64,000 bases of DNA from Pseudomonadota bacterium (lineage in GTDB: Archaea > Thermoplasmatota > SW-10-69-26 > JACQPN01 > JAJPHT01), in the NCBI GenBank assembly GCA_021325135.1, contig JAJPHT010000029.1, forward strand, positions 1 through 64,000. The letters are read 5' to 3'. Shown here piece after piece: positions 6,302-9,091 of the stretch. The notes beneath the pieces are model-generated. The model ran no database searches. It was not told the DNA's origin and saw nothing but the letters and a program-made list of their open reading frames with translations. Position 1 is the stretch's first letter; each line of letters begins with the position of its first letter. The position numbers and the translations under genes are program-made.

Positions 6302-6811
6302 TTGAGCAGCGTCTACGAGCGCGAACTGAAAGGCATCCTCAGCGGCGACGAGGACGCCATCCGCCGCTCCACGAAGACCTGCTCCCCCGAGGAGGCCGCC
6401 TCCTACCTCAAGGCGCGCCACCGCCCCTTCCTCGTCGTGCGCGGCGCGGGCTCGCTGGGCGTCGACCTCGTCGCCCTGCGCGGCGACGTCAGCTTCCCCA
6501 TCGAGGTGAAGAGCGCCAGCGCCGACGTCATCCACTTCGCGGACGGCAGCAAGCGCAACCAGGACCAGGCGGACGCCATGCAGAAGGAGTGCAGCCGCGC
6601 CTCGGTCATCCCCCTCTACGCCTTCCGCAGGAAAGGCGTGCGCGGCGACTCGTGGCGCGTCCACACGCTCCCCACCGATAACCTCCCCCCGCGCATCGCG
6701 GTCCTCTACGACCGCATCCCCAAGGTGGAACGGACCGAGAAGGGCAACTACGTCCTGCGCTGGCAGAACGGACTGCCCCTCTCGAAGTTCGTCGAGTACC
6801 TCTGTGGATAG
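6302..6811 (+). CDS. hjc: archaeal Holliday junction resolvase (Hjc family)
   Basis: YERELK…VVRGAGS..DLVAL…IEVKS PD-(D/E)xK pattern; TTG start inferred. Confidence 0.85.
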   Translation: MSSVYERELKGILSGDEDAIRRSTKTCSPEEAASYLKARHRPFLVVRGAGSLGVDLVALRGDVSFPIEVKSASADVIHFADGSKRNQDQADAMQKECSRASVIPLYAFRRKGVRGDSWRVHTLPTDNLPPRIAVLYDRIPKVERTEKGNYVLRWQNGLPLSKFVEYLCG

Positions 6812-6899
6812 GGGGGTTTCAGGGGGCGCAGCCCCCTGACGTTTCGGTCGTCTGCTGGAACGGATATCACGTCAGGGGGCTGCGCCCCCCGAACCCCCC
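6811..6899. repeat. REP/REPIN-like inverted repeat with palindromic arms
   Basis: 6811-6841 is complementary to 6870-6899 apart from a one-base indel and a mismatch; each arm contains a GGGGGC-n3-GCCCCC palindrome. Confidence 0.85.
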
Positions 6900-6939
6900 G
6901 CGTTTGGCCGCGCTGCGGCGCGGCCGGACGCTTCACTGG

Positions 6940-7285
6940 CGCAGAAAGGCCGAGGACACGACGCTGCGGGGGCCGCCCTCCGACAACGAAAGCCCGGGTC
7001 TCGCTCCAGGACGACGCATCGTCCGGGGCCGGTCCCTGGTGGATCGGCTTGGCCTTCGCGGCACTTCGGCGAAGGTGCGATTTGGGGCTCGCTCAGATGA
7101 GGGGGGCTCGGAGCCTCGTGGCCCGCGTTTCTTGGGCGACGAGGGGCTCGCGCGTGTCCTCGCCCCTCTCTTGGCGCCTCCCAAGCAAATGCCTGTCGGC
7201 GCGCCGGTTCTGGGCCCGCCCGCCACGGCACGGGCCCGTCACGGCGACGGGCGCCGCCGAACGTGTTGAGTAGGACCTGCGAGAG
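6940..7285 (+). ncRNA. candidate large structured non-coding RNA (family unknown)
   Basis: Contiguous nested helices, long-range pairings, + strand G-U wobbles, no credible ORF in a ~560-bp convergent gap. Confidence 0.5.
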
Positions 7286-7369
7286 AGACCTTCCGGGCGC
7301 CTATCCTCCCCCGGGCGCCCGGCGGTTGGGAGGCGGGCGACCGCACGCCCGGCCCTCCGCCTTCCGCTC

Positions 7370-8314
7370 CTACGCGCCCTTCTGCTTCTTGACCGCGTTG
7401 TTCAGCGCGGGCAGCACCTTGTAGAGGTCCCCCACGATGCCGTAGTCGGCCATCTTGAAGATGGGCGCGTCCTTGTTGGTGTTGACGGCCACGATGAGCT
7501 TCGAGTTGCGGATGCCCGTCGTGTGCTGGATCTGGCCGCTGATGCCCGCGGCGATGTAGACCTTGGGCTTGACCTCCTTGCCGGAGAGGCCGATCCAGTA
7601 CTCGTCGGTGAGCCAGCCCAGGTCGGTGGCCAGGGGGCGGCTGCACCCGACCTGCCCGCCCAGGGTGGCGGCGAGGTCGAAGGCGAGCTTGAGGTCGTCC
7701 TTGGACTTGAAGCCGCGACCGGCGCCCACGACGATGGGTGCGGCCTCCAGGTTGACGCCGCTCTCCTTGCGCGGCTTCTTGGCGACGACCTTGACCTTGC
7801 TCTCGCGCACGTCGCCCGCGAGCTTGGCGACCTCGCCCTTGACGCTGGGGTTCGCCGGAAGCGGCTCGAAGAGGCGCGCGGGGAAGGTGGCGATGGCGAT
7901 GTCGGTCTGCGGGACCTCGGTGGCCAGCGTCTTGCCGCCCAGGAACATGCGCTCGAAGACGAGCTTGCCGTTCTCGCTGCGCGCCTTCTGCGCGAGGGTC
8001 ACGACGCCCGCGCGGAGCTTGACGCCCAGGCGCGGCGCGATCTCCTTGCCGCGGCGGCCGCCGCTGAGGAAGACCGCCTTGGCGTCCACCTGCTTGACCG
8101 CGTCCGCCAGCGCGTCGGTCATGGGGCCCGCCTGTATGTCCTTGAGGTTGGGCTGCTCCGCGACGAGCACCTTCGCGGCGCCGTGCTGGATGTAGGCCTG
8201 GGCGTCGCCCGCGCCGACGTGCAGCACGACGGGCGTCAAGCCAAGCTCCTTCGTCTTGGCGATGATCTCGAAGGCCTGGCGCGGCTCGGGGGCCCAGACG
8301 ATGGCGTTGGCCAT
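7370..8314 (-). CDS. etfA: electron transfer flavoprotein alpha subunit
   Basis: IVVGAGRG, VGCSRPL, IGLSG..VKPKVYIAAGISGQIQH, VNTNKDAPIF..ADYGIVGD. Confidence 0.96.
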   Translation of the reverse strand: MANAIVWAPEPRQAFEIIAKTKELGLTPVVLHVGAGDAQAYIQHGAAKVLVAEQPNLKDIQAGPMTDALADAVKQVDAKAVFLSGGRRGKEIAPRLGVKLRAGVVTLAQKARSENGKLVFERMFLGGKTLATEVPQTDIAIATFPARLFEPLPANPSVKGEVAKLAGDVRESKVKVVAKKPRKESGVNLEAAPIVVGAGRGFKSKDDLKLAFDLAATLGGQVGCSRPLATDLGWLTDEYWIGLSGKEVKPKVYIAAGISGQIQHTTGIRNSKLIVAVNTNKDAPIFKMADYGIVGDLYKVLPALNNAVKKQKGA

Positions 8315-9091
8315 TCAGATCACCCCTTCCTTCGCGAGGGCCTTGGCAAGCTCCTCGGCCGCCGCCTCCAGGTTGTCGTTGGGCAGCATGATGCCCTTGC
8401 GGTCGCTCTTGGGCGCCTCGCTCTTGGGGCGCGCGAGGGTGGGCTTGATCTCGCCCGCGCCCAGGTCCGCCGCGCTGAACGTCCGCTTGGGCTTGTTCTT
8501 CGCCTGGAGGATCTGCATGAGGGCCGGCAGGCGCGGCGTGTTGAGGCTCTCCAGCACGGTGATCACGGCGGGGAGCGCCACCTCGACCTCCTCGATGCCC
8601 TCGTCCACCTCGCGCTCGGCCTTGAGCGTCTTGCCCTCCAGGCGCAGGTTGTCGGTGACGTAGGCGACGAGGGGCCAGCCCAGCTCCTCCGCGACGCGGG
8701 GGCCCGTCTGCCCCGAGTGCGAGTCGAGGGACTCCTCGGCCGCGATGACGAGGTCCACGTTGCCCATCTTCTTGACCGCCAGGGCCAGCAGGCGCGCCTT
8801 CTCGGCGGTGTCGGTGTGGGCGAAGGCCGCGTCGGTGAGCATGACGGCCTCGTCGCACCCCATGGCCAGGACCTCCTTCACGGACTCTTCCAGCTTCGCG
8901 CCGCCCAGGGAGAGGGCGAAGACCTTGGTCCCCGCGTTCTTCTCCTTGAGCTGCACGGCCGCCTCCACGGCGTTCTTGTCGTAGTCCGACACCTTGAGGC
9001 CCGCGGCGCTGAGATCCGGCGCTCCGTTGGGACCGATGCGCACCGCCTCGACGTCGGGCGACTGCTTGACGAGCGTCACGATGTTGACCAT
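8315..9091 (-). CDS. etfB: electron transfer flavoprotein beta subunit
   Basis: IVTLVKQSPD, DKNAVEAAVQLKE, LAMGCDEA, LPAVITV…NTPR. Confidence 0.95.
   Translation of the reverse strand: MVNIVTLVKQSPDVEAVRIGPNGAPDLSAAGLKVSDYDKNAVEAAVQLKEKNAGTKVFALSLGGAKLEESVKEVLAMGCDEAVMLTDAAFAHTDTAEKARLLALAVKKMGNVDLVIAAEESLDSHSGQTGPRVAEELGWPLVAYVTDNLRLEGKTLKAEREVDEGIEEVEVALPAVITVLESLNTPRLPALMQILQAKNKPKRTFSAADLGAGEIKPTLARPKSEAPKSDRKGIMLPNDNLEAAAEELAKALAKEGVI

Follow-up and report, generated by a model that had tools for sequence, protein, structure and literature searches.

Results

The window analyzed here is a 64,000-nt stretch of DNA from an uncultured Thermoplasmatota archaeon, with a G+C content of ~70% throughout. 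Within it, two convergent genes, a hjc-like gene on the + strand and etfA on the − strand, flank a gap of 558 bp (6812-7369), in keeping with the ~560 bp given in the initial annotation of this DNA. Coordinates of all features are listed in Table 1. The hjc-like gene is atypical, as its Hjc-type resolvase domain is confined to residues 197-313 and it has an ~190-aa N-terminal extension without Pfam match. Throughout, G000 is the window's own genome, G001 to G004 are other species of the same genus, all of them MAGs from soil and groundwater, and L051, L066, and L073 are metagenome contigs.

Table 1. Features of the gap between the hjc-like gene and etfA, with the flanking genes
Feature	Position	Strand	Basis or remark
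hjc-like gene, 361 aa	5726..6811	+	ORF list; Pfam PF01870, E 7e-9
High-copy palindromic REPIN/MITE-like repeat, ~120 nt	6812..6931		Between hjc-like stop codon and RNA
Conserved core of the RNA	6943..7170	+	Common to all relatives
P1, 5' strand, GG-C-CGAGGACACG	6948..6960	+	Partner 7153-7166
P2, 5' strand, GGGCCGCCCUC	6970..6980	+	Partner 7099-7109
Near-invariant core: CGACAA, P3 5' strand CGA-nA-GCCC, GGGUC	6981..7000	+	Invariant columns
Variable three-hairpin domain	7001..7080	+	Per-species folds
Closing stem of the variable domain	7001-7004 with 7077-7080	+	
P4, invariant CGCA tetraloop	7009-7024	+	Always first hairpin of the variable domain
P5	7027-7049	+	Per-species folds
P5b	7052-7076	+	Per-species folds
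UUUGGGG, P3 3' strand GGGGCUCG, CUCAGAU	7081..7098	+	Nearly invariant
P2, 3' strand, GAGGGGGGCUC	7099..7109	+	Partner 6970-6980
P6, side hairpin between P2 and P1	7111..7149	+	Length differs between species
P1, 3' strand, CGUGUCCUCG-CC-CC	7153..7166	+	Partner 6948-6960
Moderately conserved 3' tail, GGCGC ... UGCAAAU ... UCGC	7167..7210	+	Alignment
Lineage-specific 3' region	7211..7369	+	Common to L073 and, in part, G003 only
etfA	7370..8314	−	Pfam ETF_alpha and ETF matches
etfB	8315-9091		Next to etfA

As assessed by BLAST against the 3.77-Mb assembly to which the window belongs, the gap consists of two separate parts, a high-copy repeat and a single-copy remainder. The repeat matches at least 45 loci in its own genome with 84-95% identity, many of them also in reverse, and it is built from two inverted arms of 31 nt (6812-6842 and 6869-6899). 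Each arm is self-complementary, and a second small hairpin is found at 6900-6931. Weaker copies occur in G002-G004. At the equivalent junction in L073, where a homolog of the hjc-like gene (78% identical at the DNA level) also lies 5' of the RNA, the repeat is missing. It is unrelated to the RNA described below and is not part of it.

G000 and each relative have a single copy of the RNA core, as assessed both by BLAST and by searches with a covariance model (R1). This model finds one match per genome in all five species of the genus (151-199 bits), and a metagenome scan revealed further copies on L051, L066, and L073 (133-199 bits over the five species and three contigs); another contig, L067, is the same as that of the G003 locus. 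In pairwise comparison, the six distinct lineages are 63-74% identical. A MITE or REPIN identity of the core is rejected, since the core is single-copy and the multi-copy part is the repeat alone; the high copy number that could have exposed the RNA proposed initially as a MITE is thus a property of its neighbor.

Outside the genus, our searches relied on prefilters and exact motifs, which a very divergent relative could escape. Within that scope, neither the remaining 16 genomes of the class nor ~130 further genomes of the phylum yielded the RNA, and there was no match in virus, phage, or plasmid collections. When 185,579 species genomes, a set that may leave out the window's own genome, were scanned for exact motifs, the four same-genus relatives were returned together with chance matches, mostly in Actinomycetota. 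A two-block pattern allowing two mismatches gave noise alone in 400 genomes of the phylum, and its matches without mismatch across the class were limited to the genus. A 30-nt sequence profile (R2) run on 150 genomes of the phylum found coding look-alikes alone. A 22-nt match on metagenome contig L053 was rejected as chance. R1 matches elsewhere in the family and class were rejected as chance hairpins, the best of them, in G012, lying in sequence that looks coding and folds with a z-score of +0.52. We found no description of this RNA in the literature.

In the fold common to the relatives, P1, a 12-bp outer closing helix, encloses the 11-bp helix P2. The central A:U pair of P1 is replaced by C:G in G002 and by G:C in G001, i.e. 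by two independent compensatory changes. In P2, three adjacent positions covary between U:A and C:G, in differing combinations. On the + strand, P1 has G-U pairs in G002 and the G004 type, and P2 has two that are conserved. Read on the − strand, such pairs would become A-C mismatches, which places the RNA on the + strand, as already argued from G-T pairs in the initial annotation. Inside P2 is an invariant asymmetric internal loop, CGACAA (6981-6986) opposite CUCAGAU (7092-7098), followed by the short helix P3, in which CGA-nA-GCCC pairs with GGGGCUCG. Variation within 6981-7000 is limited to bulge positions 6990 and 6992, and 19 of 30 columns of the 7081-7098 region are invariant across seven sequences.

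The invariant GGGUC and UUUGG border a domain that varies between species. Its first hairpin, P4, has a different stem sequence in each of the six lineages, with compensatory changes in five of six pairs, a test that is somewhat biased as P4 was found via a search for its loop. The G004 type is without one of P5 and P5b. In P6, three of the four modelled pairs show compensatory changes. The 3' tail, which in G000 includes a CUUGG/CCAAG hairpin with a CGCCUC loop, is probably part of the RNA, judging from its conservation in the alignment. The lineage-specific region that follows includes a palindromic CCUCCC/GGGAGG hairpin (7298-7335), which is kept in L073 despite a different convergent gene there; this region may belong to the transcript or act as a terminator. 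As a side observation, CGCCUCCCAA (7175-7184), which covers most of the tail-hairpin loop and part of its 3' stem, is a perfect 10-nt complement of UUGGGAGGCG (7326-7335), which also pairs locally with CCUCCC in the palindromic hairpin.

This fold keeps some of the helices first proposed for the locus and redraws others. The 10-nt segment CGAGGACACG (6951-6960) is indeed a perfect complement of CGTGTCCTCG (7153-7162), and the pair covaries in the relatives; it is the outer closing helix P1 and not a pseudoknot. The hairpins at 7003-7029, 7029-7047, and 7052-7076 are also real, with counterparts that covary. On the other hand, the bases assigned to a hairpin at 7084-7117 are the 3' strands of P3 and P2, and those assigned to a hairpin with a pseudoknotted loop at 7141-7168 are the 3' strands of P6 and P1. 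Two further helices were dropped: in CGGGTC/GGCCCG, GGCCCG falls within an insertion in P6 that is found in G000 only, and in CCGACA/TGTCGG, the 3' side is conserved at TCG only. A hairpin at 7234-7252 lies outside the shared core, in the region common only to L073 and partly to G003. An alternative partner for the 5' segment, CGTGTT (CGUGUU in the RNA, 7262-7267), is also outside the shared core and is not conserved, which removes the grounds for the two-state switch that had been envisaged. What stands is therefore the identification of a new structured RNA. Its size and about half of its helices had to be revised, as the conserved core spans 6943-7170, perhaps extending to ~7210, instead of the ~350 nt (6940-7285) first put forward, and the first 120 nt of the gap are repeat.

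To quantify the support for this structure, we compared the modelled pairs with slid and shuffled controls. Paired cells amount to 90.4%, vs 34-50% in slid controls. Changes on both sides were seen in 14 of 41 modelled pairs, vs 1-6 in slid and 7.6 ± 1.6 in shuffled controls, and none of 500 shuffles reached the observed count; these counts come from six distinct sequences of one genus, in an alignment fitted to the model. Covariation among homologs, proposed at the outset as a check, is thus present above both kinds of control. The folding energies say less. Relative to dinucleotide shuffles, the z-score is −0.93 on the + strand and −2.32 on the − strand for 6940-7285, so that the 'almost continuously paired' appearance of this segment is at chance level for 70% G+C. 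The core alone scores −2.57, and two relatives score −1.11 and −1.77. Single-sequence folding is therefore weakly better than shuffles and not convincing by itself. Given such weak z-scores at 70% G+C, the case for structure rests on the comparison between species, on the strength of which we consider it highly probable that this is a real structured RNA gene.

A protein-coding gene was rejected. Indels of 2, 3, and 4 nt shift the conserved blocks between frames across species, and no reading frame is open in all species over the RNA region. Moreover, GC3 is 0.58-0.79 in this region vs 0.84-0.98 in the flanking genes, and ORFs in the gap have no Pfam match.

Searches for known RNAs were equally negative. 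Rfam 15 at gathering scores returned no match in the whole window, so the novelty claimed initially is retained. In a permissive scan of 6700-7450 (E up to 10), matches to the core were at chance level (E ≥ 0.48), and hairpin-type miRNA matches fell on the neighboring repeat. ARAGORN found no tRNA or tmRNA in the same interval, and these scans bear out the earlier remark that signatures of RNase P, SRP, and tRNA are missing. An RNase P or SRP identity is rejected for a second reason, which is that both RNAs are encoded on other contigs. The sole RF00373 match in the genome is at G000:C34:57542-57927 (68.5 bits, E 1e-18) and has CR-I GAGGAAAGUCC and CR-V ACAGAAC...GGGCUUA, and SRP RNA (RF01857) is at C5:41268-41527 (99.9 bits). 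In passing, this RNase P RNA (L018:1501-1886) scores below the Rfam gathering score of 84 despite its canonical motifs, and standard annotation would miss it in this lineage.

Guide RNAs were considered as well. A box C/D sRNA has C (RUGAUGA) and D (CUGA) boxes at both ends with guides of 10-12 nt; here there is one D-like/C-like pair alone, with ~110 nt of structure in between and no spacer of guide length. An H/ACA sRNA has a pseudouridylation pocket and an ACA box 3' of the lower stem, and no ACA is conserved 3' of P1. Both identities were rejected.

The genomic context of the RNA was then compared between lineages. In every lineage, the stop codon of a same-strand upstream gene lies 4-35 nt before the RNA, with the repeat inserted into this junction in G000. 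As this upstream gene, G002 has uppS, G001 and G003 have an enoyl-CoA hydratase gene, the G004 type has a MEDS-domain gene, and L073 and G000 have the hjc-like gene. Downstream of the RNA, four of six lineages (G002, G003, the G004 type, and L073) carry a PAC2-family gene in convergent orientation, whereas G000 carries etfA and G001 another, unnamed gene. The flanking genes thus differ between lineages while the RNA persists. Four different upstream genes within one genus (window, L034, L037, L044, and L073) make the 5' junction look like a rearrangement hot spot. This distribution suggests that the RNA is a stable unit beside a housekeeping PAC2 gene, the upstream junction having been rearranged repeatedly. 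A riboswitch was rejected, as no lineage has a same-strand gene downstream.

Upstream of the RNA, the lineages share neither an AT-rich box nor any other motif. A scan for bacterial-type promoters and terminators yielded no promoter-like site on the + or the − strand, and gave no useful result for the + strand. With no conserved promoter and no room for one, we infer that the RNA derives from read-through of the upstream gene, followed by trimming. Most likely, transcription would read through from whichever gene lies upstream, and trimming of the transcript would leave a stable RNA that P1 protects.

In other genera, R1 gave no match in the regions downstream of PAC2. In G008, which belongs to the same family and another genus, a 307-nt gap between a same-strand gene and a convergent PAC2 corresponds in position to the RNA locus. 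It contains a promoter-like AAAACTTAAG, a P1-like stem (GGAGGACGCG / CGC-U-GUCCACC) around one small hairpin, and a CUUGG/CCAAG hairpin resembling that of the G000 tail. This element (L119:1205-1330) might represent a minimal form related to the RNA, but it scores just 10.9 bits with R1, has a folding z-score of +0.28, and is present in no other genome.

The invariant internal loop resembles a known protein-binding motif. Beside P2, CGA (6981-6983) opposite GAU (7096-7098) could form tandem G-A/A-G pairs, and CCGA opposite GAUGA has the same letters as box D and box C. In a kink-turn (k-turn), tandem G:A pairs come after a short bulge, usually of 3 nt (PMC6298567), and many archaeal RNAs have k-turn sites to which L7Ae binds (PMC5539422). 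The potential for invariant tandem G-A/A-G pairs beside a regular helix is shared with L7Ae k-turn RNAs, i.e. box C/D and H/ACA sRNAs and the l7ae 5'-UTR. Unlike in those, however, there are unpaired bases on both strands (CAA and CUCA), three of them (CAA) being extra bases on the strand expected to be without a bulge, and in one species, G002, the adenine at 2b that is due to pair with G is replaced by U (CAGUUGAG). By these sequence features, the loop could be a k-turn only of a non-canonical kind. The RNA also differs from L7Ae-bound guide sRNAs in that it has no guide regions, ACA box, or second C/D pair.

Because the invariant loop can form tandem G-A/A-G pairs and the CGCA tetraloop is invariant as well, the model suggests that together they would make up a protein-binding or tertiary-contact core. 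By analogy, the RNA may possibly be part of a small RNA-protein particle with L7Ae as a possible partner. We offer this as a lead only, and protein binding is a conjecture because the loop departs from the k-turn and G002 alters a key adenine.

Discussion

The combination of conservation that has been relocated between gene neighborhoods, compensatory changes in at least five helices, no coding signal, and no Rfam match points to an undescribed, + strand, structured non-coding RNA of ~230-270 nt, found in a single genus. As to how it is made and what it does, we lean, with modest confidence, toward one joint account: an RNA gene whose product would be a stable, protein-bound RNA cut from upstream read-through transcripts. 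Taken separately, the mechanism in this account commands much lower confidence than the existence of the gene.

The constant position directly 3' of a same-strand gene, usually facing a convergent gene, would also suit a cis-acting 3'-UTR module that serves the upstream gene by terminating transcription, by blocking 3' exonucleases, or by insulating the convergent genes from each other. We hold this to be unlikely. A generic module would be expected at many genes, whereas there is one copy per genome, found behind four unrelated genes; the ~60 invariant nucleotides and the conserved tetraloop far exceed what a terminator needs, and there is no conserved T-run.

Strictly invariant unpaired nucleotides between covarying helices raise the question of catalysis. 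On the modelled structure, the RNA might be the catalytic or scaffolding core of an as yet undescribed archaeal RNA-protein particle or ribozyme, a speculative reading to which we give little weight; it could, for example, excise itself, with an active site made of the CGACAA/CUCAGAU loop, P3, and the CGCA tetraloop. The narrower proposal of a self-processing ribozyme, with the invariant loops as its catalytic core, which cuts the RNA from the upstream mRNA near its own 5' end, would be in line with a start 4-35 nt after the stop codon and no conserved promoter. HDV-type ribozymes, which cleave at their own 5' end, form a double pseudoknot, and the fold found here is nested. In addition, no self-cleaving Rfam family matches at E up to 10, CAGAUGAG is unlike the hammerhead CUGAUGA core, and the GAAA of G000 is not conserved. 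We judge self-cleavage quite improbable.

Because the upstream neighbor has changed at least three times in the genus, exactly at the 5' edge of the RNA, and a mobile palindromic repeat was inserted at the same junction in G000, one might see in this element the relic or cargo of a mobile element, or a transcribed recombination or attachment site. It is single-copy in every genome, however, with no integrase, transposase, or reverse transcriptase among the flanking ORFs scanned and no viral, phage, or plasmid matches. In four of six lineages it is linked to PAC2, a housekeeping gene, and its G-U pattern indicates selection on RNA, not DNA. We judge a mobile origin improbable.

A highly divergent version of a known RNA (RNase P, SRP, or an H/ACA or C/D guide) is very improbable. 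The 5' motif GAAAGGCC-GAGGAC, in a long-range helix, is loosely like CR-I/P4 of RNase P, and CCGA opposite GAUGA is reminiscent of boxes D and C, but bona fide RNase P and SRP RNAs are encoded elsewhere in the genome, and there is no Rfam match, no ACA box after P1, and no second C/D pair or guide-length spacer. Equally hard to credit is a small protein gene, or neutral sequence kept by recent common ancestry: in G000 and G002, ORFs of 97-121 aa do span this stretch on both strands, but their frames are not conserved, their GC3 is flat, and they have no Pfam match, and the element was kept while flanking DNA was replaced, with substitutions that are compensatory.

The preferred reading, an RNA gene with a stable, protein-bound product trimmed from read-through transcripts, has partial parallels. 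The RNA resembles the raiA motif RNA, OLE, ROOL, and GOLLD (PMC11109978, PMC12286853) in being free-standing, intergenic, and a few hundred nt long, with many covarying helices that surround unpaired nucleotides which do not vary, and in having neither coding potential nor an assigned function. Unlike these, it is archaeal and not bacterial, shares no sequence or structure match with them in Rfam, and has a far narrower range, one genus; it is also smaller than OLE, ROOL, and GOLLD. Archaeal RNase P RNA (RF00373) is likewise multi-domain and of similar size, with a purine-rich 5' motif, here GAAAGNCC, leading into a long-range helix. In contrast to RNase P RNA, the helices here are nested, with no P4-type pseudoknot and no match to RF00373.

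Small RNAs processed from 3' UTRs offer another comparison, as the RNA directly follows a same-strand stop codon without a recognizable promoter of its own. In bacteria and archaea, 3' UTR-derived sRNAs normally stay with one parent gene; here, by contrast, the RNA sequence is kept while the parent gene changes.

New, in this context, means that the RNA matches no described RNA family, and nothing more. Practical value is limited, the RNA being known from one uncultured genus of a little-studied soil lineage and offering no functional lead. To our knowledge, hardly any multi-helix RNAs have been described from archaea apart from rRNA, tRNA, RNase P, SRP, and guide sRNAs. An RNA of ~250 nt with an invariant core and at least five covarying helices is therefore a target in the search for a new RNA-protein particle or ribozyme, and its history in this genus indicates that an RNA gene can stay intact amid reshuffled neighboring genes.
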